A stretch of 64,000 nucleotides of DNA from Candidatus Poribacteria bacterium (lineage in GTDB: Bacteria > Poribacteria > WGA-4E > WGA-3G), in the NCBI GenBank assembly GCA_963667805.1, contig OY764016.1:4458998-4522997 (forward strand), read 5' to 3'. Below the pieces are notes generated by a model that was not told where the DNA came from, searched no databases, and saw only the letters and a list, made by a program, of their open reading frames with translations. Shown piece after piece: positions 7,008 through 59,149 of this stretch (the stretch's first letter is position 1; each line of letters begins with the position of its first letter). The position numbers were made by a program, and so were the translations under genes.

Positions 7008-7072
7008 AGGCTTTGAAGATTCTTTTAGGTCTAAACTCTTGTGGGAGGGCTTTGTAAGCCCGATTTTCTGTG
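7008..7072. repeat. approximately 65-bp composite REP-like element (family B core CTTGTGGGAGGGCTTTGTAAGCCCGATTTT)
   Basis: ggctttgaagattcttttaggtctaaactcttgtgggagggctttgtaagcccgattttct is near-identical (inverted) to the copies at 8785-8850 that flank the RAYT gene. It lies in the convergent intergenic space between two PhyH genes. Confidence 0.7.
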
Positions 7073-8088: not shown

Positions 8089-8327
8089 CTCTTGTGGGAG
8101 AGGTTTTCAACCTCGATGACTCCATAGAAGATCGGGCTTACAAAGCCCTCCCACAAGAAGTCCATTTTTTCTGTAGGAAAGGTCTCAATCTTGAATCTTT
8201 GTGGGAGGGGTTTCTAACCTCGATACCTCCATCTCAACTTCTTGTGGGAGGGGTTTCCAACCCCGATACCTCCATCTCAACTTCTTGTGGGAGGGGTTTC
8301 CAACCCCGATACCTCCATCTCAAATTT
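8089..8327. repeat. REP array upstream of the RAYT gene: two inverted single copies plus three tandem 44-bp units
   Basis: ctcttgtgggagaggttttcaacctcgat occupies 8089-8117 and the inverted copy gggcttacaaagccctcccacaagaag occupies 8132-8158. Then cttcttgtgggaggggtttccaaccccgatacctccatctcaa is repeated three times across 8196-8327, with the last two units identical. Confidence 0.8.
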
Positions 8328-12070: not shown

Positions 12071-12340
12071 TCTGTTCCCTTTCCCAGTTCAGCACATTAT
12101 ACCATACATTTGCAATGCGAAACAAATTTTTATTATATGGAGTGCCGTGAAGTCTGTCAAGAGAATTTTGCCCAGATTCCTGCCACATCACAGGAATGGA
12201 TTAGGAGAACGGTAGAATTTTGAGGCACCTGCAGGACCCGCAGCAGTCATAAATTTCGCGAACGGGTTATATACCTTAATATATAGAGCAGAAGAAACAA
12301 GGGGTGTTGAAGGTTGAAGCATCGTAAATATCGCGTTTTT

Positions 12341-12460
12341 TGCAAATATCTACAATTTTTTGCAATTTTACGAGAATTTCACGTTTTTTTATTAAATATA
12401 TGCAATTTTTCTGTAATTTTTGAATTTTTTGGCAAATATATGCAATTTTTTGTAATTTTA
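12341..12460. repeat. three approximately 28-bp AT-rich direct repeats (AAATATMTRCAATTTTTYTGYAATTTT), iteron/operator-like
   Basis: Copies lie at 12341-12368, 12393-12420 and 12433-12460. A TATAAT-like box follows at about 12488. They precede a small HTH gene. Confidence 0.5.
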
Positions 12461-15981: not shown

Positions 15982-18900
15982 TTGAAAAACCAACTTTTTA
16001 CACGAAACGTCTTGCTCGGCATGTTGATGACCCTCGTGCTGGCGTTCAGCGTGCAGGGAAACCTCGCAGACGCTCTGAGTTTCGGAGATACAAGAACAAA
16101 CGATTTACAAACTATACTCCGCGGAGCGGACTTTTCGGTTACATTTGCTGTAACTTTGGTGGATGAAGCCCGAAAGTCTGCCTACACCGCTTACACCAGC
16201 GAGTATACAGATACTAATGGTGTTGTTTATGTTTATGAGGATAAAGATAGTAGTGGTGATTATAATAGCGGTGACCGCAGGGCAACTAAATCCAGTGCTT
16301 TCCATTACAACAATGAAGCGGTTCGTATTAGTGTCAGTGGTGCTGGTGCAAAGATTACAAGTATAGGAAACAATACTATTACACCCGCGTCTTCCATCAC
16401 AGTGAAGGAAGGTGGTAGTGGCGCGGAAGCCCTAACAGCGGGGGATATTGTTGTGAATTGCAGTACTTCCAGTTACGGAGAAGTTACCATAACTGCAAGT
16501 GACGCAACGCCGAGTGAGGACTATCCTTCGGGAGTTCGCAGAGCACCAAACTTTGTTCTTACGACTTATGTCACACAGTACAACCAAGCTGTTGGTACTA
16601 CAAGAACCATCCGTCTCGTTGGCGTGACGAATGGAGTTGCAATCGGGTACGACGATCAAAGGGATCAACCCATTTACAATGGCGACTCCAGTCATTATCC
16701 GGTTACGTATACCGCAGCAGGCGGTGGAATGCTCCGCATACAAGAGGGTAGTCGTGAAGGGGCAGAAGCGGCCTCTCTTTCTACATCAAGTGCCGCTAAG
16801 GTTCTTCTCAACATGGAGGGCGCGACTAATACAGTGACTGCACAGCTTGGGGGTTCATTTGAGACATCTCAGGGTATCTATATCTTTGGAAACCCTCAAT
16901 TAAGCATAACGAGTGGGAACAATCAGAGCGGTAACCCTAATGCTCCACTTACGAATGCCTTACAAGTTACGTTACAGGATAATGCGTCAGCACCCGCAGG
17001 TGTTGTAGGGGTCCCAATCAAGTTTGATGTCACAGATAAAAGCCCGAGTGGTGGCATCTTGAGCCAAGCAGATGAAAGCACCGGAGTCACTATAGTTGAT
17101 GCTTCAAATGAAGTGGTAGATAGTCCGAGTCCTGGAAGCACAATGTACGTCCGAACTGGAACAGATGGTGTCGCTAATATTGACTTCCAACTCGGAACCA
17201 TTCCCGGGGAACAAACGGTTACCGTGAGTGCGCTGAATATAGCACGATTGACGAAGACGATTAAGGCTACAGCGACGGGGACAGCAGCTACAAGACAACT
17301 CTTTGCAGAAGACATTGACCGTCAAGGAACCACGAATATCTATACTTTAGTGGCTCGCGTTGAGAACGGTGGGACCGGAGATCCGGATGAGACAGTGACG
17401 TTCACAACTACTAAAGGGTTCTTGACGAGCGGCGGGACCACGGCTAAGACAGTAACAGCTACAACTAATGCGGCAGGTAAAGCGCGCGTCACTTACAACG
17501 CAGGCGATAGTTCGGGTACCTTAGAAGTCGTCGCGAGTATCTCTGTAGTAGCTCAGAATATAACTACTCAGCTGCAAGAGGTAACTTTTAACGTCAGAGG
17601 TGGAAGTTCCGGTGGTGACGATTCGGCTCCTTCGTCCCCCATAACAAGAGGCAGTCTGAATATTTCCGTTTCAGGCACAGGGAGCACGCGCAATATTACG
17701 GTAGACGCACAGAATGCAGATGGCGATGGCGCACACGGCATCTCTGTCCTCCTGAACGTCACCAATGGGGCAACGCTTTCGCGAACAAGCGGCGGAACTC
17801 CGCTCACCAGCACGCTCACGCTCCCAGCCACTGCGGGGGATTATGTCCTTACCGCGACAACGACTGCAGACTTCACTGGCGATACAGAGACGATTACTGT
17901 AACCTTACCCGGCAACCTTGGACTCGCGCTCATTGGGGACCAAGTGAACGGCTCCCAAACCATTCAAGTAACCGCCCGAAACGCAGCAGGCACGCTTGAA
18001 ACAACCCCTGTGCTGGTATCACTCACGGGAGCTGGGCTCTCCAGAACAGTTACTGTTACAGGTTCCCAGAATGTTCCGATCGTGTTACCGACTGCATCGG
18101 GAACATTGACTGCCAGTGCCACGGGATATAATGAAGGGTCGGTTACATTACCGGCGCGCTCGACAACAACAACGACGACGACCACCACAACGCCAACCAT
18201 ACCAACAGGACCTGCAGGCGGGGTTCCCGATAGCATTGTGATTGACGGGTCACGTACCCTTGACGGCACATTGGCTGAAGCGTCCCGGCTCCGTGTGAGG
18301 GTTCTTGATGCCAACGATAACGGTGTTTCAGGTGTAGGCGTGACGTTCCGGGTTCTGTCCCCTGGACGCGGCACTTTTGCAGGTGCTCGCGGTTCTGGAC
18401 GTGCGATCCGACTCGATACAGATCAAAACGGCTATGCAACGGTGAACTTCACTCCCACAACGGAGGGCGATGTCATCGTTGAGGCAAAAGCCGCGAAGGT
18501 TACAGCGGGTGTCACGTTCATCCTGGATGTCGGTGAATCCGCCACAACAACGACCCCCGACACAACGACTCCAGACACAACAACTCCTGATACAACGACC
18601 CCCGCGCCAGCGGATGTGACGCTAAAAGTCGGTGCCGCGAACCGTCCCGTGATGTATTGGATCACAGGGGGAGCCTTGTATCGTCAGGCGACCGGAGACG
18701 CGACGCAGATCACAGCGAGTGCGAAGGATGTCGTCGTGGATACAGCTGGCGGCAAACTTTACTGGATAGAGCAGACCAGCGAGCGAACGGGTGCGATCCA
18801 TAGTGCAAACCTTGACGGCTCAAACGCCAAAGTCGTAAAGACGCTGACGAGTGCGCCGATGGGATTGGCACTTGACACCGCCAATAAGAAGCTCTACCTC

Positions 18901-20049: not shown

Positions 20050-20084
20050 GCATAACCCCCATTGAGGACTATGATGCTCCAAGT

Positions 20085-20247
20085 GCTGGCGAGGTTTCCT
20101 AACCTCGCCTTGCTCACCATCTCCGCGCTCCTCTGCTGGCGGGGTTTCCTAATCTCCCCGTTCCCCCTGCTGGCGGGGTTTCCCAACCTCGCCTTTTTTG
20201 TCAGTATCAGGATTTGTCTAACTGCTGGCGGGGTTTCCGAACCTCGC
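20085..20247. repeat. four same-orientation REP family-A hairpins in the intergenic region
   Basis: The copies are GCTGGCGAGGTTTCCTAACCTCGCC at 20085-20109 and variants at 20134-20158, 20168-20192 and 20223-20247. Confidence 0.75.
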
Positions 20248-20313
20248 CATGATATTCTACTTGATAAAAGATAGGGGTTTTGCTAAAATTATCAAAACAA
20301 AGCACATGCCGGC

Positions 20314-21261
20314 ATGGATACGGAGGAGATTATGGAGACCCTAAACGATTTTCAAAGTAAACAACGAAAATATATGCCTGTCTTTCCAAACGCGAGCGGG
20401 AAACCGACCGTTTATATCGAAGGCTACCCTTCCGAGGATGAAGACCCCATGCCAGCAGGTGAATTTCATGGGATGCAGATGCATACCTTATTTGACCAAT
20501 TCTTACGATATTTTCAGGCACACCCGCATATCCATGTGAGTATGGACAACTTTATCTACTACCGTGAAGGCGATCTGAGAAAGGTCGTTTCTCCCGATGT
20601 GTATGTCGTCTTGGGGGCTGCGAGACTTCCCTTGCGAAGGAGTTTTTATACGTGGGCAGAAGGCACTGTGCCAACGGCAGTTTTTGAGTTTCTTTCGGAT
20701 GCGACAGGGGCTCAGGATCGCGATGAAAAGATAGAGGTATATCTACGGGATATAGGGGTTGCGGAGTATTTTATCCATCAACCCGATATGAATCGCCCGA
20801 TAGAATTTCGGGGATGGCGGCGGGATGCGGTAGGCACCATCATTGAGATTGAACCGGATGAAGCGGGTGGTATTTTCAGTGCGTCCTTAAATCTGTATTT
20901 GCGATGGGAACTCCATGAGGCGTGGGAGCTGCGGCTTTTACGTCCGTATCTGCCGGATGGCACCCCGATAACGACTTCTATGGAGGAGGAGCACCTTCGG
21001 CTGGAGGAGCGACGCCTTCGGCAGGAAGAGCAACGCCTTCGGCAGGAAGAGCAACACCTTCGGCTGGAGGAGCAACACCTTCGGCAGGAAGAGCAACGCC
21101 TTCGGCAGGAAGCGGAGACGCGCGCGGCGGAAGAGGCACAACGCAGAAGGGAAGCGGAGACGCGCGCGGCAGAAGAAACACAACGCAGACGCGAAGTAGA
21201 AGCCGAGTTAGAACGGCTCCGGGCACAATTGGTGAACTCCCGAGATAGCGATATGTCCTAA
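20314..21261 (+). CDS. Uma2-family (DUF820) PD-(D/E)XK endonuclease-like protein with C-terminal coiled-coil octad repeats
   Basis: The Uma2 core is GEFHGMQMHTLFDQ...PDVYVVLG...FEFLSDAT...KIEVYLRDIGVAEYFIHQPD. The C-terminus is (EEQRLRQ/EEQHLRL)n followed by ETRAAEEAQRRREAETRAAEETQRRRE. Confidence 0.7.
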   Translation: MDTEEIMETLNDFQSKQRKYMPVFPNASGKPTVYIEGYPSEDEDPMPAGEFHGMQMHTLFDQFLRYFQAHPHIHVSMDNFIYYREGDLRKVVSPDVYVVLGAARLPLRRSFYTWAEGTVPTAVFEFLSDATGAQDRDEKIEVYLRDIGVAEYFIHQPDMNRPIEFRGWRRDAVGTIIEIEPDEAGGIFSASLNLYLRWELHEAWELRLLRPYLPDGTPITTSMEEEHLRLEERRLRQEEQRLRQEEQHLRLEEQHLRQEEQRLRQEAETRAAEEAQRRREAETRAAEETQRRREVEAELERLRAQLVNSRDSDMS

Positions 21262-28095: not shown

Positions 28096-28131
28096 GTCAA
28101 AATCTCTGTTGTGGGAGGGGTTTGTAACCCC
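28096..28131. repeat. solitary REP family-B copy
   Basis: ctgttgtgggaggggtttgtaaccccgatttatgc. Confidence 0.7.
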
Positions 28132-28235
28132 GATTTATGCGGCCAGAGGCATTCAATTATCACAAATCTCGGCTCTGGAGAAATGAACTGCAAAGTTCAA
28201 ACTTCCGTGCCTTATCCGCAAGGTAAATTAAAAAT

Positions 28236-29493: not shown

Positions 29494-30342
29494 GTGAAAA
29501 GACTGGCTATTCTTTTTCTCACGGTTTTAATTTCTACGCAGGTTGAAGCCAATTACAATTTTGCGCTTCACACCGATTCACACCCTTGGGCGCGTGAAGA
29601 CCCAAAAGGGGCTCAAGAGGAAATTGATGCCTTGATTAAGATTATTGATAACAAGGTAAACCTGACGGCTTTTGATCCCAAGGATATTAACGGATTAGGA
29701 GAGTGGGTCAAGGCACACACAGCAGGGGGTGGGAATACCCTGATTCTGACCGGTATCACGCCTTCAACGATTTATCCGATCAATAACGGAAAACCTGATG
29801 GCTCGCCGCTTGAAGAGTTCCTTGATGCTGGCAACACGATTTTCAATACGGGTGAATACACCTTTTACACATCGGAAGGCCCCGATGAAACGAACGGACA
29901 AGCTGCACTACCCAATGTCATTGACGTTCCAAAAGCGTTCGTGTGGATGAATAGAGGTCCAGACGCTTGGGCAGCCAATCCCGTTGAAATGACCCCGACA
30001 CAGGAAGGTAAAGACCTTATACCGAGCCTGAAAAAGTATAATACGTCTTATCCGTTCCATCTTGATGATTACGACAGAAGCCCCTGGGAGTTAGAGATCG
30101 CGCTTGCTGAGAATGATGATGCAGATCCGCGGGTTGACCCGGCTGTGCTATATAACAAAGACACCGGTGGCCGCCTCGGGATCTTCGTCCAGACCTATGT
30201 GGGGGATGTGCCGCATCCGGGTGTCTCATGGGGCAATATTATGGGTGAATTCATCGTTAACTATTACCTACCAGAGGTTTTATCGGTTGAACCGATCGAT
30301 AAATTAACGACAACTTGGGGAAAACTGAAATCCTCAAAATAG
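29494..30342 (+). CDS. secreted hypothetical protein with C-terminal KLTTTWGKLKSSK tag
   Basis: Signal peptide MKRLAILFLTVLISTQVEA. No recognisable catalytic domain. Confidence 0.5.
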   Translation: MKRLAILFLTVLISTQVEANYNFALHTDSHPWAREDPKGAQEEIDALIKIIDNKVNLTAFDPKDINGLGEWVKAHTAGGGNTLILTGITPSTIYPINNGKPDGSPLEEFLDAGNTIFNTGEYTFYTSEGPDETNGQAALPNVIDVPKAFVWMNRGPDAWAANPVEMTPTQEGKDLIPSLKKYNTSYPFHLDDYDRSPWELEIALAENDDADPRVDPAVLYNKDTGGRLGIFVQTYVGDVPHPGVSWGNIMGEFIVNYYLPEVLSVEPIDKLTTTWGKLKSSK

Positions 30343-30422
30343 CCATTAGATAATTGGAGGAAAAGTGTGAGGGTGGCACTACAGATGCGCATGTCTGTGT
30401 GCCGCTTTCACACGCAATAAGG

Positions 30423-31193
30423 ATGAAAAAATTAACATATCTTTTAGCGGTTGTGGCGTTCCTAATGAGTTGTGTACTCGCGCATGCAGTCGATCCAGAT
30501 AAGGATTTACTTATCTATCTACCTTTTGATGAAGGTCAAGGTAACAAAGCGGAAGATGTTGGGCCGAATGGATTCGTGGGTGATATAAAGAACGCAAAAT
30601 GGGTAGAGGGTGTCTCAGGTCAGGCACTCCAATTTAAGGGGGGGAGTGTCAACTTCGACCCACTCAAAATTGATCAACCCAAGGAAATGACGATCGAATT
30701 CTGGTTTAAACCGGACGAGAAAATTGACAGTGGTGCCCGAATTGATCTGCTCTATCGTTTGCAAGGTGGTGGACGACCTCATGTTACGTTCAACCGTGGT
30801 GGCATTTTATTCGGGTACTACTTTGCGACGCAAGGTGTGGAATTACCGATACACACGACTTATGATGCGTTTGAATCGGAATGGTATTACTTCGTTGGGA
30901 CACAGAGCAAACAGACGGGATGGATGTATATTAACGGGGAGCTTGATGCTGAGACGGATGCCGGTGGTGATGCCCGCATGGATTTCGGTACCCAAGGGAT
31001 GTGCATCGCAGCGAGTCAGGGCAACGCTAACTTCTTCAACGGCATGATTGACGAATTTAAGATGTGGAGTGTCGCCTTCACTGCTGATGATGTTAAAGAT
31101 AGTATGGAAAAAACCCTTGCTGTGCAAGCGGAGGGTAAGTTGACCACGACGTGGGGTAAAATTAAGTCTGGTTCTGATGGAATCAGGTTTTAA
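30423..31193 (+). CDS. secreted concanavalin-A-like lectin/LamG_3 domain protein with C-terminal KLTTTWGKIKSGSDGIRF tag
   Basis: Start at the ATG at 30423 (MKKLTYLLAVVAFLMSCVLAHA, AAGGA SD) rather than the track start. GQALQFKGGSVNFDPL...TIEFWFKP...WYYFVGTQ...MYINGEL...IDEFKMWSVAFTADDV matches the LamG_3 pattern. Confidence 0.55.
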   Translation: MKKLTYLLAVVAFLMSCVLAHAVDPDKDLLIYLPFDEGQGNKAEDVGPNGFVGDIKNAKWVEGVSGQALQFKGGSVNFDPLKIDQPKEMTIEFWFKPDEKIDSGARIDLLYRLQGGGRPHVTFNRGGILFGYYFATQGVELPIHTTYDAFESEWYYFVGTQSKQTGWMYINGELDAETDAGGDARMDFGTQGMCIAASQGNANFFNGMIDEFKMWSVAFTADDVKDSMEKTLAVQAEGKLTTTWGKIKSGSDGIRF

Positions 31194-31211
31194 GCGTCTT
31201 ACCTAACACGC

Positions 31212-33770
31212 CTACCGAATCACTGAAATATGGAGCGGACGGGTTGCTGAGCGACCCTCCGCATCCACGCACGTTAGCACATGTTTTCCCCTGGCAGGCG
31301 TAAGCCAGTATTGCTCTCCCGCATTTCCTTGAAAAATTAACTCACCATCCAAAAACCAGAACAGTTCCTGCGTCCGACTGGAAGCCGAGGCGGTCAACCG
31401 AATCTTTTGGTTTTCCAGTGGCACCCCCTCCCGAATGTAATAGGTAGTGTCTTCTGCTGGGGATAAAATAATCGGGACGTTCCCTGCAATTGTGCCGGTA
31501 CACAAGGGATTATGCGCCGGTAGGACAGACACAGCAAAACCATTCTCTGCCAACCACGTCGCCGCATCGGCGGGCCACTCCTCAAATATTTTTTTATAGG
31601 GTCCAGTTGACCCATCATTATTTCCCCAACAATGGGAACAGAGACTGTATCCTGTCGATTCGTCAACATAGATAGGTTTATGAATCGCGCAAACCGCTAC
31701 AGACGAAACACCGGGTATATACACGTCCTCCTTATGGGTGGGACAGTGCGGCGAAACCGGTGCGCCACTCAGGGTACACACTTGTCGTGTTTTCAATTGT
31801 TCTGGTTTGGTAAACCAGTGGTGTGTGTCTTGTCCTGTCAAGGCAGTGAAGAGCGCGAATAGGATCGGAGTTGCTGCATCTGTGCCGCTCAGCATGGGTG
31901 TCCCCTTTCCATCGAAATTACCGAGCCATACACCGATTGTGAAAGTCGGGGAGTACCCGATGCACCATGCATCTCGGTGTCCATAAGACGTCCCAGTCTT
32001 CCACGCAATCTTTGGTAGGTTCATTGTCCTTTCAAACGCTTCTGGATTTTTAACCGTGTTGGTAGGGAGTTGTGAGTTTGTTAACATCTCGGTTATGATG
32101 AAGCTGGTCTCTTGTCGGAGTAAACGTTTGGAATAGTTTTCAGTTTTCGGTTGATGAGGCTTTGTCAATTGATAAGGTCCAAATTCTCCCATATTTGCCA
32201 GTCCAGCGTAAAGTGTTGTCAATTCGAGTAGATTCACTTCGCATCCGCCGAGAACCATAGAGAGTCCGTATTTCTGGGCAGGCGCGAGTGTAGAGATACC
32301 GGCTTTTTTGAGGAAGGCGTGTAGTGTCCTATTTTTCAAGCGTGCATTAAGATTAACGGCGGGGACATTGAGAGAACGTGCGAGGGCTTGACGGGCAGTG
32401 ACATAACCGTTATATTTCCCATCATAGTTCACCGGTGTATAGTCAGCATAGGTAACGGGGACATCGAATAACAGTGTTTCGGGTGTAATCAAGCCCTCTT
32501 CCATTGCCAGGGCATAGACGAAGGGTTTGAGTGCAGAACCCGGAGAACGCGGGGCGAGCGTCCCATTTATTTGTCCTAATGCCTTCCGGTCGAAAAAGTC
32601 GTGGGAACCTACCATTGCTAAGATATGGCGGTTTTGGGTATCCATGACGATGATTGCGCCTGTGCTGGTGCTATGAGACCCGCGCAAACTCGGCTTACGC
32701 GCTGCGTCCACCAGATATTCGTTAAGGATGCGTGTCGCGATATCCTGAACCTTGGCGTCTATTGTCGTGTGTATCCTGCCATTTGTTATCCGTGAGTGGG
32801 AGGGGTTTCTAACCCCGGATTTCTTCCGGTTTTCTTTAATCAATAGGCGTGAGAGGTGTGGTGCTTTAAATGGAAGTGAATAGCGTTTATGCGGAATCGG
32901 TTCTTGGACTGCCTCCTGCCACTGCTGTTCGGAAATTTGTCGGCGTGCCAGGAGACGATTCAGGACTTTTTCGCGTGCCTTTCGGGCGTTTTCTGGGAAC
33001 CTGTCAGGGCGTAAACGTTCTGGAGCGTTCGGAATGGCGGCGAGAAGTGCGGCTTCCCCAAGACTAAGCGTATGCTGGGGTTTGTTGAAGTAGAACCGCG
33101 AGGCTGCCGCTGTTCCGACTATATTCCCACCATACGGGAGCATGTTAAAATAAAACGTTAAAATCTCTGATTTGGAATAAGCGTGTTCAAGTTGAAAGGC
33201 ACGGAACATCTCAATGAATTTGTTCGGAATGTTACGCGCCTTAGGTTCCATCAATCGGGCGAGTTGCATGGTGATGGTTGAACCCCCGCGGACAACTTCA
33301 CCCGCTTTCAAATTGTCATAGATGGCTGTTGCAATCGATACAGGATTGATACCGTAATGATAGTAGAACCACCTATCTTCTGATGTGAGTATTGCTTGGT
33401 GGAGTAAGGGGGAATAGGTATCGGGTGTTCCGTTTGTCTCGTGGTGAGAATCTTGGGTTAAGGAGGGGACTGATTTATTGAAGATCTGTTGTGATTGATG
33501 ACTAAATCGCCACATGCCATCGTCGGCTAAAAATGCTCGAAGCCACTCGCCGTTTCTGTCCAACACAATCTGAGATACAGGGGGATGGAGACGTGCTTTG
33601 GGTAGCGGGAAACACCAGTTTGCGAGCATAAAGAGGATGACAATCAACAAGAAAGATAGCATTACAGTCATCAGTCCTCCGAAGAGGGGGTGTCGGTTAT
33701 AAGAGGGGCTTGTTAGACGAAGACCTCTTAACTGAAAATTGAAAACTGAAAACTGAAAACTATTCATCAT
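31212..33770 (-). CDS. pbpC: penicillin-binding protein 1C (PbpC-type bifunctional transglycosylase/transpeptidase)
   Basis: GT51 motifs are EDRWFYYHYGINP, GGSTITMQLARL and KSEILTFYFNMLPYGGNIVG. A transpeptidase domain and the PBP1C C-terminal domain follow. Its start overlaps the upstream A2M gene stop by 4 nt (ATGA). Confidence 0.8.
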   Translation of the reverse strand: MMNSFQFSVFNFQLRGLRLTSPSYNRHPLFGGLMTVMLSFLLIVILFMLANWCFPLPKARLHPPVSQIVLDRNGEWLRAFLADDGMWRFSHQSQQIFNKSVPSLTQDSHHETNGTPDTYSPLLHQAILTSEDRWFYYHYGINPVSIATAIYDNLKAGEVVRGGSTITMQLARLMEPKARNIPNKFIEMFRAFQLEHAYSKSEILTFYFNMLPYGGNIVGTAAASRFYFNKPQHTLSLGEAALLAAIPNAPERLRPDRFPENARKAREKVLNRLLARRQISEQQWQEAVQEPIPHKRYSLPFKAPHLSRLLIKENRKKSGVRNPSHSRITNGRIHTTIDAKVQDIATRILNEYLVDAARKPSLRGSHSTSTGAIIVMDTQNRHILAMVGSHDFFDRKALGQINGTLAPRSPGSALKPFVYALAMEEGLITPETLLFDVPVTYADYTPVNYDGKYNGYVTARQALARSLNVPAVNLNARLKNRTLHAFLKKAGISTLAPAQKYGLSMVLGGCEVNLLELTTLYAGLANMGEFGPYQLTKPHQPKTENYSKRLLRQETSFIITEMLTNSQLPTNTVKNPEAFERTMNLPKIAWKTGTSYGHRDAWCIGYSPTFTIGVWLGNFDGKGTPMLSGTDAATPILFALFTALTGQDTHHWFTKPEQLKTRQVCTLSGAPVSPHCPTHKEDVYIPGVSSVAVCAIHKPIYVDESTGYSLCSHCWGNNDGSTGPYKKIFEEWPADAATWLAENGFAVSVLPAHNPLCTGTIAGNVPIILSPAEDTTYYIREGVPLENQKIRLTASASSRTQELFWFLDGELIFQGNAGEQYWLTPARGKHVLTCVDAEGRSATRPLHISVIR
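32795..32828. repeat. REP family-B copy embedded in frame inside pbpC (encodes KSGVRNPSH)
   Basis: gtgggaggggtttctaaccccggatttcttcc lies within the open reading frame, in the TG-TP linker region. Confidence 0.6.
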
Positions 33771-36700
33771 TCTGGGACCACTGTAATGCGCATGCTACCC
33801 GTTACAGCGGATTTTGTTGTATCGTACATCGCCTCGGCGGCAATGGGAGGTAAGGTAAATTCGCCTTGTGTGACGGCGCGTAGCGCGTAATAGAATTTAC
33901 GTTCGCGTTGGCGGGGAAACGTGCCGAAGAAGATTAGCCTGTCATCGCGAATATCAATATAATCCGGTTTGAAATCTTGTGTTTTCAACCATGAAATACC
34001 TGCTCGGGATTCTAATCTCGGATTCTCAATTTCGAATCCCGTAGGCAGCATATCTACGACGACAACATTTTCAAGGTTGGCGGTGAGAGCTTTAACGTTT
34101 ATCTCAGCGATGATGAGTTCTCCGTGTGCGAAGGGGCCTGTCCGTTCTTCACCGTCTTTGTTAAAATAGCGTCTGCGGACCTGTAATTCGTGCTCGTATT
34201 CTTCGATGAAGGAATCGCGTTGGATGCCAAACGCGCTCCAATAATAGTAGCAACTGCCCTCACCTTTAACAGAAAGTTGGACACGCATCCCATCCCATAT
34301 TTTATCGGTATAACGGGTCTCCGTTGCGTCGAAGTCGGCGAAATGTTCGCCATTAAGCGTTAGGGTACCCGTGTAATTTCTATCCATCTGTTTCTTCAGA
34401 ATCTTGCCGAGTGCCAGAAACGCAAAGGCGTTTTCTTGTGTTGTTGCCCATCGGTTCCCTTCAGCTGCTGCAGCACTTAGGTTTTGGACGAGCATTGGGA
34501 TTGACGGGTGGTTTTTGTTAACTTCAGCAAGAACGTCTAACATGATGGCTTGGGCTCGAATAGGGGAATCAAGCGTTCCGCCTGTCTCGCGATGTCCGTT
34601 GCCTTTATTAAAATTGGGTGATACTGACACGGGTAGCATTGACAGGGCGGTTTCCAGTTCGCCGCTGAGAGCGAACGCACCTGCGAGTTGGAAATGGCTA
34701 TAATCGCTGAGTCCGCTCAAACCTCTGTTTTTCAGATAGTGCATCGTGCCTCGGTCGGGATGTCCAGCAGCAGCTAAGACGTAAGCGGCATAGGTTGCTA
34801 ATGAAATCTTCTTTCTTATCTCTTGGGCTTCGTTTTCTGTGTTTGGCGAGAATTTCGCTTCCGTTCTTAGACCTTCCAGCATTGCGTCATAAACCCGGTC
34901 TGAGACCTCGTAGCCTGCCTTTCGTGCCTCGACGAGGAAGTGAGACGCATAGATACTGCTCCATGGGTTCACGTAAGTGCCGCCGGGCCAATAAGCGAAA
35001 CGATCGTCTGACTTCAACATACTTTCGATTTTTGTGATACCCGATGTGATGTAGTGATCCACCGAGTCTTCTGCTGCCAGCATCGGTTCAACACTTCGTG
35101 CCAAACCGCTGAAGTAAAGCAGCGGAAAAACCTTGCTCGTTGTTTGTTCGAGACAGCCGTGCGGGTAACGTATAAGGTAACGGAGACTGTCCGCAAACCT
35201 AATATTGGGGAACGGAGATAACGTGAGGCTAAACTCTGACGAATCGGGTATTAAATTTGACGGGAAAATAAAATCAGCAGGTTCACCTGCGCGGACCACG
35301 CCCTGTCCGGTTTGTGTAACAGGTGGAGCCACGGAACGCAGTGGGATTTTAACGTCTAATTGTGTTGTTTGTGTCTTACCGTGCGCCGAAAGATTGAAGT
35401 TGGCTTCCCCGATTGCGTCCTGAACGAGAAGATCGAAAAAAACTTGTGCTTCTGCGCCTGCGTCGACCTTCTGGTTTATACTGAGTTTGTCTGCTGTATA
35501 TTGGCTATCGGAAACCATCGGAGACTGTTGGTTTTCAGCAGAGCGGTGCTCTTGTTGATCACTGGCTATTGATGGATCGTTATTGGCAGCCATTGCTGAA
35601 AGGAGTTGCACGTCGCCTGATGCTTGCAATTCGACCGTAAATTCCTCTTCCGCGCCCGTGCCGTTAAAGAGGGTAACCGGGACCCGAACCTTATCACCAC
35701 CCGCAAGGAATCGTGGAAATGTCGGGGTTAAGACAATAGGTTCGCGGACAGTCAGATGTGCTTCTGTGCCACCGTAATCGCCACCCGCGAATGCGACTGC
35801 CATCAACCTGAGTGTCCCATTGAACTGCGGGATTTTGAATTGAACAGTACCGCGACCATTTCCATCGGTTTTCACGAATCCTGACCAGAGTGAAATCGGT
35901 TTTACGCGCCGGATGCTGCCTGTGCTCAATCGCTTCCGCAGTTCCGCCTGTCGTGTCGTGGCTGCATCTCCCCCCGTACTTGAGTTGTCGATAACATTTG
36001 CGATTTCGGGGAGGATCCCACTATACACGTCGAAGGAGCGCGTCTTAAGCCCACGCTGTCTATAGAAGTAAGCGTGTGGGTTGGGTGTTTTGAAATCGGT
36101 TAACACGAGGATCCCTTCATCAACGGCTGCAATACAGACATCATATTTTTGCCAAGAACGTCTACCGTGAACTTGGAACGCTATAGTCACCTCGCTATTC
36201 GGTAGGACTGTCGCTGCGCTTTCTATATTCTTTTCTGGACTGGCGAGTGGAATCTTCTCCATATCACCAGCATCGTTTCTCTGATTGAGCGACATTTCTA
36301 TCGAAAGTTGTCTCCGTGTTTCATCTATTTTGAGTGGAATTACCCCAAACGCGCGCGCCGGGAGCGGCGACTTCTTAGCAGTTGTAGGAGGGGTTTGTAA
36401 CCCCGATTCCATCGGGATGGCGCGCGTCAACGTCGCAGAGAGATACACATTCGGTCTATAGGCATAACGGATTGGGATTGATAAAGTTGTGGTGTTATTT
36501 TTCATCACGACTGTCCGGTAACTCAACACCTTTTCCCGTTCGATCGTCAGCAGGAGTGTGCCCGGAAACGGTGCCTTAACATATAGTTTTGCTGTTTGTC
36601 CGGGACGGTAAGCAGGCTTATTAAGCGTCAGTTCCAGTCGAGTGGGATGTTCCATAGAAACTGGAATGTTTCCCCATCCGCTGACATAAAATCCGAGTTC

Positions 36701-39466
36701 TGCTGTCGCTGTCGAGGCGATGTCCTCAAGACGGACGCGGTATTCACCATAATCTGAGGGCGTTAAGGTCACTGTCTGGACTGTTTCTGCTGAAGTTAGT
36801 GTGACCGTTTCCACTTCTGTTGTTTGAGGTTCCGAGACGTACGCATAGCGCCCGGCACCGTTCTGACGGAGTATCGTGTTCCAGTGGACTTTGTGGAGAC
36901 TGAGTTTGAGGTCTCTTCCGGGGGCAACTGCCATTGTATCGTTAACAGCAATGTAATCGAATCGGAGCGGTTGGTTGATTTTTACATCCCCGGTCTTTGT
37001 GCGTCGGAGTCCAACGTAATGCGAATAGGGATGGATCACAACGCTGTGAGAAGCGGTGACGGCTCTGCCGCCGACTTCGCTAACGGTCGCTGTCAGCGTG
37101 CCGTTTAGCAGAGAAGGTGCTTTCAGCGTTTCAGGGATCGTGAATTGATAGGACGCTTTACCCGCTGCATCGGTTTTAACTTCTCCCAATCCAATTCTTT
37201 GTTTTTCAAAATTGGAACGCGCATTCCCGAAGACAAACGAGTTCCACTGTGTTGCACTTGCGTTGGCTGCTGAATTTACAAACGAGACTGCTTCCAATTC
37301 GCAGGAAGCTTCCACCGTGCGCCCTACTGCTGGGGGACCGAATAGATTGATAGCGGACACTTCAATACCGAGTTCCTCTCCAAGTTTATAAGTGGATTTA
37401 TCCGCTGTTACAGCGACTTTTATCCGATCAGGCATAAATTCTTCGACCTGAAATTGGACTCTTCCAACGACCCGATCAGCGATCCGCATCTTGGCAATAT
37501 AATTACCAGTCAAGGCGTAGGTAGGGATAGGAATTTCTACATCGCAGGCACCGCTTTTGTTTGTTTGTAGTCTTAACTCCCGCATAATTCTGCCGTTTGG
37601 GGAGAGCACTTCAATCTTGGCAGGGAGCGGTTGTGGTGTTACCTGCTTTGGTCCTCGAACAATTCCAGCAAGTTGGACGGTTTCACCCGGACGATAGACC
37701 CCTCTGCTTGTGTAGAGGAACGCTTCATAACCTTTTTGCAGGTAGGCAGAACCGGCAATGTTGAAATCTGCTGTTGCGATTTCGTGTCGGTCGAGTTGAA
37801 CGAAAGCGAGATCGTCCCGTTTCGCGGCGGTGATCATAAACGGTGTGAAGTCTTCAGTCTTCTCCACAACGTCTGTGAACTGGATGTATCCTGCCCAGTT
37901 GGTTGTCCCATCGAGGAGTGTTTGGTTATTATCGCTGATGAGTTTAACGCGCGCCGCTGGGACTGCCGAACCCGTCGCGAGTGATTTCACCCAAACGTAT
38001 AGGTTATCTCCTAAGCGTTTGGCAGTGATACCCAAGTCTGTGATGAGCACCCATTGATGCGCACTATCCCACTCCCGCTCTGCGTTTCGCGCCACGACCT
38101 TAAAGATGCCGACATGTTCGTCTGAGAGATATTCTTCCAAGGAGATAGGTGTTGTTACCTCTTCGTTCAATTGGGACGGAATATCGAGTTCTTCTGTCCG
38201 AATCGGTTTACCTAAGTTTCTGCTCCAGCGACTCCATCGTTCTAATTTTGATATGTAGATAAGGTTGTTCGCGAAAACTTTTTCGATATTGAGTTTCACG
38301 CTTTTAACATTGATTGTTGCGAGACCTAAATTCAGATGCCCCTTTCTCGCGAGGAAGAAACCGTCGCCAAGGAATCGAAGTTGGGGTCGGATATCTGGGA
38401 TTCTGAGGCGCGTCCTGTAATCTTGTTTTAAAACGGCATCGTTTCGGGCTGTGAGACCGCGTCGGATCTTTAGCGTGTAGGTCGTGCGCCGTTTGAAGTT
38501 GCCGTGAATCTGCACGTTTCGATAGTCGGATGTCACTTGATGTGCTACTGCGGGGGTCAGTTCTATATACGGCTTGATGGCATCGCTGAGTACCGGCGCG
38601 CTGAAGCTCACCGAGATATACGGCGTTCCATCACTTTCCCAAACGTCAGCGTATGTCACACCGAGTGTGCCTCTCCCGCGGAGTATGACCGGTGTAACAC
38701 TCGCTTTTTCTAAACCAATTTTCCCACCCGTACATTTGAACCCTTTTTCAATCTTAATCTTTATCTCTTGATCTGCGTTGCCGCGTTTTATACGCTGCGT
38801 CTCGAATGTTACTGTCCGCGCTGTTGCTGTGTTGGTTTGAATCTGGTATGGAATTTCTGTTTCGTCGTCCAGTTCAATAGAGAGGTGTGCCTTTAAATCG
38901 ACAATGGTTACAGGATAATTAAATGCTATCGTCCCAAAACCTGTTGCGTGTTCGCGGGCATCATTGGCGGTAAATTCCATACGTGCCTGCTGCACTGCAA
39001 AAGGATCCGTAGCAAATTTAAACTCTTTTTGTCCAGTGAGTAGAAATGTCTCAGATGGGTTGAGTTCTGGGGTGAGTTGAACAGTATATTGTGCGGAGGG
39101 TGCTAAGGGTGCGTCTAAAAAGAAACCGACTCTGTCCCGCGCGATCCAACGGGCAGCGCCTTGGACAGCTGGTGTGAACCGAAGTGCCTCTGCTGGAACT
39201 TCGGTCCCGACACGCGACTTATCAATAACCGCTTCCGAGAACGTAATCGACAAATCAACCCATTGTGGAACCTCACCTTGTGGGCTGAAGGTCTTGACAC
39301 TGTATCGTGTCCGAGCACGCATGGGCCCCTGTACAATATAGACGATACAGGCAGCAAGGAGTAAGGACATGAGTCCGATCACACCGATTAAGCTTTTTAA
39401 GAGCAAATTTCGACTTCCGGGTTTCGCCGAAAGATTTGTGGAGAGTTTGGCTGCCATCAGACGCAC
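33767..39466 (-). CDS. bacterial alpha-2-macroglobulin family protein with intact thioester motif (YfhM-like)
   Basis: 1899 aa, N-terminal membrane anchor, MG-domain repeats. The thioester CLEQ lies in YLIRYPHGCLEQTTSKVF. It is cotranscribed with pbpC as in the classic yfhM-pbpC pair. Confidence 0.85.
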   Translation of the reverse strand: MRLMAAKLSTNLSAKPGSRNLLLKSLIGVIGLMSLLLAACIVYIVQGPMRARTRYSVKTFSPQGEVPQWVDLSITFSEAVIDKSRVGTEVPAEALRFTPAVQGAARWIARDRVGFFLDAPLAPSAQYTVQLTPELNPSETFLLTGQKEFKFATDPFAVQQARMEFTANDAREHATGFGTIAFNYPVTIVDLKAHLSIELDDETEIPYQIQTNTATARTVTFETQRIKRGNADQEIKIKIEKGFKCTGGKIGLEKASVTPVILRGRGTLGVTYADVWESDGTPYISVSFSAPVLSDAIKPYIELTPAVAHQVTSDYRNVQIHGNFKRRTTYTLKIRRGLTARNDAVLKQDYRTRLRIPDIRPQLRFLGDGFFLARKGHLNLGLATINVKSVKLNIEKVFANNLIYISKLERWSRWSRNLGKPIRTEELDIPSQLNEEVTTPISLEEYLSDEHVGIFKVVARNAEREWDSAHQWVLITDLGITAKRLGDNLYVWVKSLATGSAVPAARVKLISDNNQTLLDGTTNWAGYIQFTDVVEKTEDFTPFMITAAKRDDLAFVQLDRHEIATADFNIAGSAYLQKGYEAFLYTSRGVYRPGETVQLAGIVRGPKQVTPQPLPAKIEVLSPNGRIMRELRLQTNKSGACDVEIPIPTYALTGNYIAKMRIADRVVGRVQFQVEEFMPDRIKVAVTADKSTYKLGEELGIEVSAINLFGPPAVGRTVEASCELEAVSFVNSAANASATQWNSFVFGNARSNFEKQRIGLGEVKTDAAGKASYQFTIPETLKAPSLLNGTLTATVSEVGGRAVTASHSVVIHPYSHYVGLRRTKTGDVKINQPLRFDYIAVNDTMAVAPGRDLKLSLHKVHWNTILRQNGAGRYAYVSEPQTTEVETVTLTSAETVQTVTLTPSDYGEYRVRLEDIASTATAELGFYVSGWGNIPVSMEHPTRLELTLNKPAYRPGQTAKLYVKAPFPGTLLLTIEREKVLSYRTVVMKNNTTTLSIPIRYAYRPNVYLSATLTRAIPMESGLQTPPTTAKKSPLPARAFGVIPLKIDETRRQLSIEMSLNQRNDAGDMEKIPLASPEKNIESAATVLPNSEVTIAFQVHGRRSWQKYDVCIAAVDEGILVLTDFKTPNPHAYFYRQRGLKTRSFDVYSGILPEIANVIDNSSTGGDAATTRQAELRKRLSTGSIRRVKPISLWSGFVKTDGNGRGTVQFKIPQFNGTLRLMAVAFAGGDYGGTEAHLTVREPIVLTPTFPRFLAGGDKVRVPVTLFNGTGAEEEFTVELQASGDVQLLSAMAANNDPSIASDQQEHRSAENQQSPMVSDSQYTADKLSINQKVDAGAEAQVFFDLLVQDAIGEANFNLSAHGKTQTTQLDVKIPLRSVAPPVTQTGQGVVRAGEPADFIFPSNLIPDSSEFSLTLSPFPNIRFADSLRYLIRYPHGCLEQTTSKVFPLLYFSGLARSVEPMLAAEDSVDHYITSGITKIESMLKSDDRFAYWPGGTYVNPWSSIYASHFLVEARKAGYEVSDRVYDAMLEGLRTEAKFSPNTENEAQEIRKKISLATYAAYVLAAAGHPDRGTMHYLKNRGLSGLSDYSHFQLAGAFALSGELETALSMLPVSVSPNFNKGNGHRETGGTLDSPIRAQAIMLDVLAEVNKNHPSIPMLVQNLSAAAAEGNRWATTQENAFAFLALGKILKKQMDRNYTGTLTLNGEHFADFDATETRYTDKIWDGMRVQLSVKGEGSCYYYWSAFGIQRDSFIEEYEHELQVRRRYFNKDGEERTGPFAHGELIIAEINVKALTANLENVVVVDMLPTGFEIENPRLESRAGISWLKTQDFKPDYIDIRDDRLIFFGTFPRQRERKFYYALRAVTQGEFTLPPIAAEAMYDTTKSAVTGSMRITVVPE
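36384..36411. repeat. REP family-B copy embedded in frame inside the A2M gene (encodes ESGLQTPPT)
   Basis: gtaggaggggtttgtaaccccgattcc. The protein reads ...IPMESGLQTPPTTAKK.... Confidence 0.55.
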
Positions 39467-39620
39467 CTCCTGTGCTTCTGAAGATTCTGTATTTAACTAA
39501 CACGCATAATAGGGCAAAAGAGACTTAAGTTCCAAGGATTTTATAAGAGCAATTTTTATGCCAACTGTCTATTGTTATTATCTTAAACGTTTAAGGTGTA
39601 GTGGTCAAGTTTGACGGTCC

Positions 39621-39650
39621 CTGAAAAGGGTGAAAAGGGTGAAAAGGGTG
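39621..39650. repeat. (GAAAAGGGT)x3 tandem nonamer
   Basis: ctgaaaagggtgaaaagggtgaaaagggtg in the 3' region of the cytochrome-porin gene. Nearby hairpins gggacggatgtggagatccgtccc and cggcacctgggtgccg are terminator candidates. Confidence 0.5.
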
Positions 39651-39763
39651 TCTTTAAGTGACGTTATGTGTAAATATAAACACATTAGGGACGGATGTGG
39701 AGATCCGTCCCTATGTAAAGCAGTTTAAATGGAATCGGCACCTGGGTGCCGATGCAAAAGTCT

Positions 39764-40999
39764 TTAGAACCAGAATCGTGACATCAAAATAATCTGGTCT
39801 GTCCCCTGAAGTTGGCGGAGTGTGCCTTTGTCTTTAATAGCGTCATCGGCATTGCGGTCAGCATTGGCGAGGTTCGCCCAGTAAAAGAGAGAAATTGCCC
39901 CGTTTTCGATAAAATTGTACTGGGCACTGAGTGTAACCCGTTGGCTTGCATCTCCCTTAACCGTTCGATCTGGGTCAAACAAACCGTATCGACCCGCGAC
40001 GGTGAATTGGGGAAGAATGCGATATTTTGCCCCAACGTAATACCCCTTTGAATCAACAGCATCCGGTGTGAAAGCGGCGACCTCTCCGCTATTTCCAAAA
40101 TTGAATTCACCCTCAATACTCACCCCTGCGTAGGAAGCGGTGAGAAATGCACCGATGAGTCGTTCCCAGTCTTCGGTTGATTTTTCAAGGATTGCGGACG
40201 CCCCTGCTCGAATCGGTCCGAGTTGTGCACCAAAGGTCCCGAGTCCACCTTTCGCTGCGCTGGTGTTGGCATTAAAAAAAGCTGCGTTATAGAAAATCTT
40301 CCCCGCACTTCCACCGATTTCAACCCCGACATCCCGTTTATTAGAACCGAGTCCATACCCTTCCCGAACAAGAATGTTATGATCTTTCTGTTTGATAGCG
40401 AAGGGCAGTCGAAATTGTCCGACTTTGACATAGAGATGCTTTGGAATCGCGTCTACCGTTGCAAACGCATTCATCGTTGTCCCAGCGTTGTTGGAAAGGG
40501 TAAGCCGGACGTGTTCAGAGGCTTCTGCGTTGAACGTTACTTCCGCTTGCATGAGCAGAAATCTGTCGACGGAAGAGTGGCATGAATTACATCCAGCGAT
40601 CGCATTCTCGGCTTCGTCGACATGTGTTGTTTTGATAAAAGCCGTCTGGAAATCCAGGGAGGTTGTGAGTCGCTTAACGACCTCCTTGACTTCTTCCGTC
40701 ACGGCTTCCGCGTCGAAATCTTCGGGGAATTCGAAATAGTTCTCTTCAAAAATTTCGCCGACCCGATTTCGGGGTCCACCGCCAGCCGGGTCAAGATGAC
40801 AGAAGCTGCACTCTTTATCAAGTTCGGTTGCAAACTCAGGTCGTGCCTCTACAGTGGTCGGGAAAAAAAGACTGAGCGAGACACTCGCTATAAACGCGAG
40901 CCATAAAAACAGTGATATACCTCTGGATATATCCGACGATTTTGGGAGTAGAGTGATATTACTCAGGTATCTCGTCCAGTCGTTAGCGTATGAATTCAA
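39764..40999 (-). CDS. putative outer-membrane cytochrome c-porin fusion (Cyc2-like), two CXXCH motifs plus beta-barrel
   Basis: Signal peptide ...GISLFLWLAFIASVSLSLFFPTTVEA. CSFCH sits 12 residues into the mature protein and a second GCNSCH lies about 70 residues later. The C-terminal 270 aa show alternating-hydrophobic beta strands and end in ...LMSRFWF (terminal Phe, an OMP signature). TTG start. Confidence 0.45.
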   Translation of the reverse strand: MNSYANDWTRYLSNITLLPKSSDISRGISLFLWLAFIASVSLSLFFPTTVEARPEFATELDKECSFCHLDPAGGGPRNRVGEIFEENYFEFPEDFDAEAVTEEVKEVVKRLTTSLDFQTAFIKTTHVDEAENAIAGCNSCHSSVDRFLLMQAEVTFNAEASEHVRLTLSNNAGTTMNAFATVDAIPKHLYVKVGQFRLPFAIKQKDHNILVREGYGLGSNKRDVGVEIGGSAGKIFYNAAFFNANTSAAKGGLGTFGAQLGPIRAGASAILEKSTEDWERLIGAFLTASYAGVSIEGEFNFGNSGEVAAFTPDAVDSKGYYVGAKYRILPQFTVAGRYGLFDPDRTVKGDASQRVTLSAQYNFIENGAISLFYWANLANADRNADDAIKDKGTLRQLQGTDQIILMSRFWF

Positions 41000-57756: not shown

Positions 57757-57783
57757 TAACCGCAAGGAAAAGTAAAAAAATGG
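57757..57783 (+). promoter_or_regulatory. short copy of the conserved CCGCAAGGAAAAGTAAAAAAATG leader/RBS element
   Basis: taaccgcaaggaaaagtaaaaaaatgg immediately 5' of the HIT gene ATG. Confidence 0.45.
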
Positions 57784-58187
57784 ATTGTATATTTTGTTCC
57801 ATAGTTGCTGGTGACATTCCAGCGACCACAGTGTATGAGGATGAAGATGTCTTGGCTTTTATGGATATTGCTCCCGCGAACCCGGGACATACTCTCATTA
57901 TACCGAAGCAACACTATCGAAATATCTATGATATGCCTGCAGAAGTAGGCGGTAAAATTATGCAAGCTGCGGTTTCACTCGCAAACGCGATCCGAACCGC
58001 ATTGAATCCTGATGGGCTTAACCTCTTTCAATCGAATGAAGCCGCAGGATTCCAGACCGTTTTCCATTTCCATCTCCACCTAATCCCGCGATGGGAAGGC
58101 GACCCGATCCGGTTGCCGTGGCGACCGAGCGAAGGGGACATGGAGGAAATCGGCAACATTGCAGCAAAAATTCGAGAAGCCTTGTAG
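57780..58187 (+). CDS. HIT-family (histidine triad) nucleotide hydrolase
   Basis: Histidine triad HFHLHLIPR. 135 aa. Confidence 0.8.
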   Translation: MDCIFCSIVAGDIPATTVYEDEDVLAFMDIAPANPGHTLIIPKQHYRNIYDMPAEVGGKIMQAAVSLANAIRTALNPDGLNLFQSNEAAGFQTVFHFHLHLIPRWEGDPIRLPWRPSEGDMEEIGNIAAKIREAL

Positions 58188-58296
58188 AACTGGTCTACAG
58201 GAATACTACTCCTACGGAACTTCGTCGAAAGGACATAATTCGTTGGTTGGGTAGGTCTAAGGAAACCGTAGCCTGCAACACCGGCGCAGGCGGATA

Positions 58297-58360
58297 TACG
58301 TAAAGGAACTTCAAATCTGAAATCCACCTGACCGAACCGCAAGGAATAATTAAAATTATG
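58297..58360 (+). promoter_or_regulatory. long copy (about 60 nt) of the conserved leader element ending in GAACCGCAAGGAATAATTAAAATTATG
   Basis: acgtaaaggaacttcaaatctgaaatccacctgaccgaaccgcaaggaataattaaaattatg. Confidence 0.45.
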
Positions 58361-59059: not shown

Positions 59060-59149
59060 CCGATAGGTAGCCATCCCTGCCGTTCCTGAACCAAAATTGT
59101 AGCCCGTAATGTAATGGAGGGGTTTTTGCTTGGGCGTTTCCTCTGGATA

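Follow-up and report, generated by a model that had tools for sequence, protein, structure and literature searches.

How does a short hairpin of repetitive DNA come to be read as part of a periplasmic protease trap, and is the peptide that it encodes used by the host or only tolerated? The question is raised by a stretch of 64,000 nucleotides from a Candidatus Poribacteria bacterium (contig OY764016.1, positions 4,458,998 to 4,522,997; the whole stretch is called the window here), in which the gene for a bacterial alpha-2-macroglobulin (A2M) contains a copy of a repetitive extragenic palindromic (REP) element within its coding sequence. It is very likely that a REP of a GT[A/G]G-headed family entered a hypervariable loop of the Poribacteria A2M in frame and has been carried there as a tolerated passenger.

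The element in the A2M gene and its empty site

The host is a 1899-codon open reading frame (ORF) whose product is an A2M of the YfhM/ECAM type. It has matches to bMG3, MG2, bMG5, bMG6, A2M_BRD, A2M and bMG10, so that all Pfam domains are present, and it matches the Salmonella and E. coli A2M structures (4U48/4RTD) at E=2e-104. The translation contains a CLEQ thioester motif and an N-terminal LAAC lipobox, and the closest named homologues are from Candidatus Poribacteria. The assignment to the YfhM/ECAM type is based on the macroglobulin (MG) domains, the bait-region domain, the CxEQ thioester, the lipoprotein signal and the adjacent pbpC gene. The ratio of nonsynonymous to synonymous substitution rates (dN/dS) is 0.084 between two carriers of the REP and 0.088-0.122 in the remaining pairs (about 0.09), and the host gene is under strong purifying selection.

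The REP copy within this ORF is the 27-mer GTAGGAGGGGTTTGTAACCCCGATTCC, which occupies 36384-36410; the earlier note on this DNA had its start right and its end one base too far. The copy is antisense to the gene, because its GTAG head lies on the plus strand. As the earlier note had read it, the REP core is translated in frame as ESGLQTPPT (residues 1020-1028), within the protein context ...TRAIPMESGLQTPPTTAKKSPLPARAFG... (also given as ...LTRAIPMESGLQTPPTTAKKSPLPARAFGVIPL...), and the tryptic peptide that covers these codons is AIPMESGLQTPPTTAK. The palindrome consists of the stem GGGGTT (36390-36395), the loop TGT (36396-36398) and the stem AACCCC (36399-36404), with a centroid energy of -5.4 kcal/mol as DNA. 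Six copies were folded, five from the plus strand and the A2M copy on both strands, and all gave the identical hairpin with a 6-bp stem and a 3-nt loop.

A search with GTGGGAGGGGTTTCTAACCCCGAT allowing up to 6 substitutions recovered 11 copies of the GT[A/G]G-headed family in the window. The 27-mer occurs twice there with up to 3 mismatches (0.00 expected), and its 15-nt core has 12 matches with up to 2 mismatches (0.08 expected); the match in the A2M gene is not due to chance. Stem variants are compensatory (GGGGTT/AACCCC, GGGCTT/AAGCCC and GAGGTT/AACCTC). From 91 distinct metagenome copies, among the matches listed, we obtained the consensus T-GT[A/G]GGAGGGGTTT[SY]AACCCCGAT-T with a length of 25-28 nt, 42 of these copies having a GTAG head and 49 a GTGG head. 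The family has the attributes of GTAG-type REPs, namely a short stem-loop palindrome, a GTAG-like head, high copy number and a REP-associated tyrosine transposase (RAYT) gene flanked by repeats. The copies in A2M and pbpC depart from the extragenic location, since both are inside ORFs; membership in the REP class nevertheless stands, because intragenic exceptions are documented (PMC3733652). An Rfam scan of positions 30000-40000 returned no family match.

The earlier note had staked the insertion on an indel relative to A2M orthologues, and the alignment places one exactly at this site. This alignment set the protein from the window against 120 orthologue clusters with identities of 78-97%. 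The loop, which varies in sequence and length in all lineages, lies between nearly invariant flanks, PNVYLSATL.R and LPARAFGVIPLK. ESGLQT[PS]PTTAKK is found at the site in only 2 of the 120 clusters, P0001 (97% identity) and P0006 (89%). The closest orthologues without the REP have EGTV-----TDKK or similar and are 5 aa shorter, and the Salmonella A2M (4U48) shows a gap of 11 residues in this position. In the DNA, the REP is carried by the window itself, by the loci L003, L004 and L005 (95-98% identical to the window) and by locus L001 (87%). Their sense strand reads ATGGAA-TCGGGGTTACAAACCCCTCCTACAACTGCT-AAGAAG, against ATGGAA-GGAACTGTGACCGAT-AAGAAG in the empty allele of locus L036, so that 30 nt stand for 15 nt and SGLQTPPTTA replaces GTVTD. 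The flanks of the empty L036 allele and the filled L001 allele are nearly identical, with one mismatch in the 87 nt upstream of the REP site. The A2M insertion is a recent filled/empty polymorphism.

A coincidental resemblance or an assembly artefact, with nothing inserted, would be compatible with the shortness of the element and with the many metagenome copies found at contig ends, as if the repeats broke assemblies. However, the insertion is common to five independent assemblies, one of them a 5.18-Mb contig, the gene is collinear with its orthologues on either side of the REP, and the empty site lies on near-identical flanks. Together with the match counts given above, this makes such an explanation vanishingly improbable.

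Route of entry and history of the allele

A candidate transposase for the element is encoded in the same window. The RAYT gene encodes a 170-aa protein that matches Pfam Y1_Tnp and reaches 134 bits with NCBIfam NF047646 (cutoff 80). The gene lies between REP clusters at 8094-8310 and 8804-8893 that have opposite orientations, which is the layout of a REPtron, and the copies starting at 8201, 8244 and 8287 are located in 43-nt tandem units. The RAYT ORF runs into the last of these copies and consequently ends in ...VSGLETPPTRS, the same repeat reading frame as the A2M peptide, and the kinship of the two peptides proposed in the earlier note is borne out. The tail is considered REP-derived because the NF047646 model ends at residue 152.

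The earlier note had also described in-frame REPs in two neighbouring genes of one operon. The RAYT gene does not belong to the A2M operon, because it is 28 kb away. The partner gene is instead pbpC, which encodes penicillin-binding protein 1C (713 bits against TIGR02073, PBP 1C) and is placed in one operon with A2M because its start overlaps the A2M stop by 4 nt. It carries an in-frame REP of its own, with an empty site in relatives, translated as SGVRNPSH in a repeat frame different from that of the A2M copy and placed in the linker between the domain matches to Transgly (residues 108-273) and Transpeptidase (371-608). The pbpC copy is present in the window, L001 and L003, and the site is empty in L002 and other relatives; the most complete form, in L036, is KENRW-KKFGVTNPSHKW-KTDGR, a gain of 8 aa. 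The pbpC linker shows other changes as well. The REP-containing segment is tandemly duplicated in L004 (6854-6928, LIKENRKKFGVRNPSH twice), L012 has an unrelated 54-nt palindromic insert with a 16-bp perfect inverted repeat at 16675-16795 (TTACCCATCCACTCGT), and L013, L014, L015 and L042 have an unrelated palindromic insert containing GGGGTCCCC (the GGGGTCCCCACCCGTTAC element).

We propose that a REP of ~25-28 nt, with its 6-bp stem, its 3-nt loop and a cognate RAYT encoded in the same window, would have been inserted antisense into a short hypervariable A2M loop between two conserved beta-strands, and that RAYT was probably the enzyme that moved it. A small accompanying deletion would have left a net gain of 15 nt. 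The reading frame would have been kept because the repeat has no stop in that orientation and because the net change is +15 nt. Selection would then have purged insertions that broke genes, leaving in-frame, stop-free copies in loops or linkers, and would have favoured the frame that yields a small, polar, proline-rich peptide.

The A2M junctions are ambiguous over 3-4-nt microhomologies, GGAA and AAC, both of which also occur in common REP flanks: ...CCCCGATTCC flanks a dozen further REP copies, and the copy at 28111 shares the 5' flank GTTGT. With 30 nt in place of 15 nt, the unit cannot simply have been inserted without a further 6-nt deletion, unless the event was imprecise. Junctions that overlap sequence common to target and REP flanks, and a replacement instead of an addition, are also what would be left if the REP had been copied by ectopic gene conversion or by replication template switching via these microhomologies, with no role for RAYT, followed by short-patch recombination between lineages. 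The absence of a target duplication, the L001 REP segment on L036-like flanks, a pbpC copy that is likewise mosaic at the scale of tens of nucleotides and the mosaic character of the whole region all point the same way. But no donor REP with matching flanks (GCAGTTGT... and ...CGATTCCAT) was found outside the A2M alleles in ~2.5 Mb of related sequence, and a RAYT gene with the classic REPtron layout is present. The missing target duplication is uninformative, since enzymes of the IS200/IS605 type insert without one. We regard copying without RAYT as unlikely, though a serious alternative to RAYT-mediated insertion. The intergenic copy at 28111 yielded no insertion footprint in comparison with relatives, its spacer being too diverged for alignment.

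The distribution of the alleles does not follow a simple genealogy. In L036 and L001, three positions within 16 nt of the REP carry a derived T that no other lineage has. L001 nevertheless carries the REP allele with exactly the junctions of the window group, and L036 has the empty site and a private synonymous variant. Over a 9.4-kb region, L001 tracks L036 at most informative sites, and the REP segment is its only window-like run. Across A2M, the identity between L002 and the window is 93%, with 96-97% in the 5' part and 82-89% around the REP; neither REP is present in L002, and beyond A2M its distance from the window is no smaller than that of L001. Vertical descent of the REP allele was rejected, since L002 is closer in A2M than L001 and yet lacks both REPs, and since the flanks of L001 are L036-like. 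The A2M-pbpC region is a recombination mosaic. The combination of window-group junctions and L036-like flanks in L001 means that simple vertical descent fails and that a short conversion or a deterministic parallel event must be assumed. On the alignments, the REP allele must apparently either have crossed between backgrounds on a tract of ~30-60 nt or have had two origins along a deterministic route.

Two further observations concern the target. At 36405-36417, TCC separates the REP end CCCCGAT from ATCGGG of the ancestral coding sequence, and the two together make a small extra inverted repeat. CCGATGG lies next to the insertion in both the A2M and the pbpC targets and forms a small inverted repeat with the REP end. 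It is a possible target motif, although with two sites, and chance at a few percent by a rough estimate, we do not claim a target preference. The same A2M loop in a distant orthologue (70% identity; L047, 13001-13090) contains a GTAG-like palindrome, GGAACCGGCACAAGACCGGCCCCTACAACTGCG, with the peptide GGTGTRPAPTTA; this palindrome, too, is followed by ACAACTGC, and it may represent the independent arrival of a different REP variant.

Fate of the peptide and spread of the element

Whether the encoded peptide could serve A2M depends in part on where it lies. The bait of ECAM is Arg923-Leu942, inside MG8 (PMC4498604). According to the alignment with 4U48, the REP site precedes the segment aligned with the Salmonella bait by ~130-165 residues, and insertion within the bait itself was rejected for that reason. 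The loop is probably part of the MG domain that bears the bait region (Pfam A2M_BRD). An AlphaFold2 model of the MG domain (residues 930-1135, from a 16-sequence alignment) has a mean pLDDT of 48; its secondary-structure pattern weakly suggests that the site lies between two strands. The loop is probably exposed at the surface.

The same element entered A2M more than once. It is present in the same frame at residues ~1315-1328 in 17 other A2M orthologue clusters, as (DSEK)ESGLQTPPTNI, and at codon ~175 of the L047 gene, as HSEFETPPTRE. At the older site, residues ~1315-1328, several lineages have a disrupted stem (GTAGGCGCGG, GTAGGAGCGG), and replacements of P by A and of T by I stand beside synonymous changes. 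Neither the hairpin nor the exact peptide is maintained there, given these stem-breaking and nonsynonymous changes. A different GTAG-headed hairpin, GTAGGGGCTGGGTAACCCAGCCC, is found in L001 and L036 ~250 nt downstream of the REP site (alignment columns 3490-3540), antisense and in frame in a second variable loop. G(T)GLPSPY-type peptides in the second loop of several clusters resemble this element, which is absent from the gene in the window.

An exact-pattern scan of metagenome contigs gave at least 120 stretches with the element. The census drawn from it is one of exact-consensus copies in crude open frames, on contigs of unverified taxonomy, and it comprises 93 copies, among the matches listed, that are at least 200 nt from a locus end. 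Thirty of the 93 (32%) are at least 20 codons inside stop-free frames of at least 150 codons, compared with 75% of random positions in the same loci, and 22 (24%) are inside frames of at least 300 codons, compared with 57%. After deduplication, the antisense frames used among these matches are SGLxTPPT (13 copies), IGVxNPSH (4) and RGYKPLP (2), a biased use (p=0.004), and the sense frames are VGGVSNPD (6) and WEGFPTP (1); the sixth frame has a stop. Of ten of the longest host frames, nine are recognisable by Pfam, and they include rpoB, uvrA, a C25 peptidase, altronate dehydratase, a sulfatase, a heparinase-like protein and TPR proteins. The rpoB copy adds 5 aa relative to orthologues of 75% identity, one of which (P0122) has a copy elsewhere, and an older SGL[KQ]TPPT is shared upstream. 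Around it (L135, 1449-6719; P0121-P0123) is a lineage-specific insert region with up to three SGLxTPPT segments, whose positions differ by relative.

These data bear on a different view of the A2M loop, in which it has been recruited, either as a protease-accessible or modified Thr/Pro-rich loop or as an mRNA hairpin acting on how the A2M-pbpC transcript is expressed or how stable it is. The presence of ESGLQTPPT at two A2M sites (residues ~1020 and ~1315-1328) in different lineages, the significant bias toward the SGLxTPPT frame, a REP allele in two diverged backgrounds and a copy in both genes of the operon are what such use might produce. Nevertheless, the peptide is carried at this site by 2 of 120 clusters only, the site is well upstream of the bait-aligned segment, and older copies gather nonsynonymous and stem-breaking changes. 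The hairpin is weak and lacks a U-run after it. The frame bias is equally explained by purging of peptides that are less friendly to loops, and the insertions are found in many unrelated proteins. Recruitment is therefore quite improbable. The earlier note had suggested that REP codons are tolerated or even recruited; tolerance agrees with the hypervariable, indel-rich loop, and recruitment sits poorly with the few carriers and the decay of the older copy. The A2M insertion fits a tolerated passenger whose peptide probably has no function, and we found no support for recruitment.

Several points weigh against our reading of a REP that entered in frame and is tolerated. The A2M event was no clean cut-and-paste, because 30 nt replacing 15 nt calls for one or more extra mutations or for an imprecise mechanism, and the junctions show no target-site duplication. 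L001 has the junctions of the window group but L036-like flanks to within 10 nt upstream. Placement in a loop rests on the 4U48 sequence alignment and on a poor AlphaFold model, with the mean pLDDT given above. The presence of one peptide at two A2M sites, together with the frame bias, might also be a sign that this peptide is useful.

The census also gives a hint that in-frame REP insertion is unusually common in these Poribacteria, with a high intragenic share and a frame preference. Carried further, the REP family would be a coding-compatible mobile module that has colonised genes of sponge-symbiont Poribacteria on a large scale, with a quarter to a third of its young copies intragenic and the SGLxTPPT frame apparently favoured by selection, the hosts cited for this being A2M at three sites, pbpC, rpoB at up to three sites, sulfatases, peptidases and TPR proteins. 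We place this extension a little short of an even chance. If it is true, the REP family would rank among the main sources of loop-length polymorphism in these genomes, and it would resemble the Rickettsia palindromic elements (RPEs) while having kept its transposase. At its strongest, this extension would have the Thr/Pro-rich peptide itself in use, for example as an exposed or protease-sensitive A2M loop. The metagenome contigs are mostly of 42-52% GC, like the window. Two contigs with the same 24-nt REP in a uvrA loop (L155 and L182) were not counted as Poribacteria because of their 61% GC and their named relatives, which are Gammaproteobacteria; in an 82%-identical uvrA orthologue (P0128) the repeat is read in another frame, as RGYKPLA. 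The REP family may be common to several phyla in one habitat.

The coordinates of the REP copies and of the genes concerned are collected in Table 1. Other repeats of the window belong to different families. A second hairpin repeat family, CTGCTGGCG[A/G]GGTTTCC[Y]AACCTCGCC, has six copies at 6896-6977 and 20080-20251, all intergenic, two before 7000 and four between ORFs that end at 20049 and start at 20314. The latter ORF (20314-21261) contains at 20961-21170 at least six tandem 21-nt units; the heptad repeat that they encode (EEQRLRQ / EEQHLRL) lies close to the C-terminal end of the 315-aa product. The motif ACCGCAAGGAA(A/T)AATTAAAA is repeated directly upstream of start codons at 57759-60017 and 28171-28234, for example that of the ATG at 28236, possibly as a common leader or as a context for ribosome binding. 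At 12335-12460, AT-rich direct repeats (TTTTTTGCAAATATATGCAATTTTT) with a spacing of 10-50 nt form a cluster.

Table 1. REP copies and associated genes in the window, with positions counted from its first nucleotide
Feature	Position	Strand	Basis or remark
REP copy in A2M, GTAGGAGGGGTTTGTAACCCCGATTCC	36384..36410	+	GTAG head on + strand
REP hairpin in A2M	36390..36404	+	DNA folding, -5.4 kcal/mol
ESGLQTPPT codons, residues 1020-1028	36383..36409	-	Translation
30-nt segment TCGGGGTTACAAACCCCTCCTACAACTGCT (sense) replacing 15 nt GGAACTGTGACCGAT of L036; net +15 nt / 5 aa	36377..36406	-	Alignment
Alpha-2-macroglobulin gene, 1899 aa, insertion host	33767..39466	-	Pfam, 4U48/4RTD match, dN/dS
pbpC, 852 aa	31212..33770	-	TIGR02073, 4-nt overlap with A2M stop
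Second in-frame REP, pbpC, SGVRNPSH, residues 318-325	32796..32819	+	Translation, empty site in relatives
RAYT gene, 170 aa	8277..8789	-	NF047646 134 bits, Pfam Y1_Tnp, flanking REPs
REP overlapped by 3' end of RAYT ORF	8287..8310	+	Tail VSGLETPPTRS
Intergenic REPs near RAYT gene (span 8094..8267)	8094-8117, 8131-8154, 8201-8224, 8244-8267	+, -, +, +	
Intergenic REPs, opposite flank of RAYT gene	8804-8827, 8870-8893	-	
Intergenic REP with compensatory stem variant GGGCTT/AAGCCC	7041..7064	+	
Intergenic REP, nearest match in window to A2M copy	28111..28134	+	
REP copies, starts	7041, 8094, 8201, 8244, 8287, 28111, 32796, 36384	+	GTGGGAGGGGTTTCTAACCCCGAT search
REP copies, starts	8131, 8804, 8870	-	GTGGGAGGGGTTTCTAACCCCGAT search

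Comparison with known repeat systems

The single A2M insertion is ordinary in kind and of a sort already described for other bacteria. The earlier note had presented such insertions as rarely documented outside Rickettsia, and this view is contradicted by the literature, where intragenic GTAG and CGTC REPs are listed in several species, most in Opitutus terrae and Rickettsia conorii and many in uvrA, uvrB and dnaE2 (PMC3733652). Di Nocera et al. (2013) distinguished a GTAG and a CGTC superfamily of REPs, connected the GTAG REPs with RAYTs, and argued that intragenic REPs are neutral because they form flexible linkers or loops (PMC3733652). Further small repeats fused in frame were reviewed by Delihas in 2011 (PMC3184786). 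No report on REPs, RAYTs or A2M in Poribacteria was found in the literature.

What makes the case useful is that filled and empty alleles lie on nearly identical flanks in a gene under strong purifying selection, that a transposase gene is present in the same window, and that the same element is found independently in other loops of A2M in sister lineages. With the metagenome census added, Poribacteria, of which many complete chromosomes are now available, may be a promising natural system in which to follow how selfish hairpin DNA becomes variation in protein length, and which of the encoded peptides are tolerated.

The element is close in form to the GTAG REPs with their RAYTs (Nunvar 2010, PMC2817692; Bertels and Rainey 2011, PMC3116915; Di Nocera 2013, PMC3733652), with which it shares a GC-rich, GT[A/G]G-headed hairpin, an arrangement as singles, inverted doublets and tandem arrays, and a RAYT flanked by repeats. 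It differs in that the hairpin is very small, in that about half of the copies are GTGG-headed, and in the share of listed exact copies within long open frames (24-32%), which looks high for elements that are extragenic by name. Miniature inverted-repeat transposable elements (MITEs) and other small repeats (Delihas 2007, 2011, PMC3184786) are likewise non-autonomous and carry open frames that extend or interrupt proteins in frame. MITEs, however, are 70-300 nt long with terminal inverted repeats and usually target duplications, and the Poribacteria element has none of these features: apart from the hairpin itself it has no terminal inverted repeats, and its junctions are free of duplications.

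As they are described in the accounts of Ogata et al. (2000) given in PMC3733652 and PMC3184786, RPEs are also palindromic selfish DNA found in frame in many unrelated genes and thought to lie in surface loops without destroying function. They are of ~105-146 nt and add 30-50 aa, whereas the Poribacteria element is ~25-30 nt long and adds 5-9 aa; set against the RPE range of ~100-150 nt, its unit of ~25-28 nt and its net gain of 5 aa in A2M fall well short. RPE-4 and RPE-6 have been equated with intragenic CGTC-type repeats, a type said to be without a dedicated transposase (PMC3733652); here a RAYT is present and the host phylum is different. The Poribacteria element works like an RPE, but it is not one.

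The intragenic REPs of Opitutus terrae and of uvrA, uvrB and dnaE2 in several species (PMC3733652) agree with the present case both in the type of element and in the type of location, and one metagenome contig of our scan has its copy in a uvrA loop as well. The hosts in the present case are instead a periplasmic protease trap, PBP1C and rpoB. Unlike those earlier examples, the A2M case offers very close filled and empty alleles and a single protein that was entered at three sites in different lineages.

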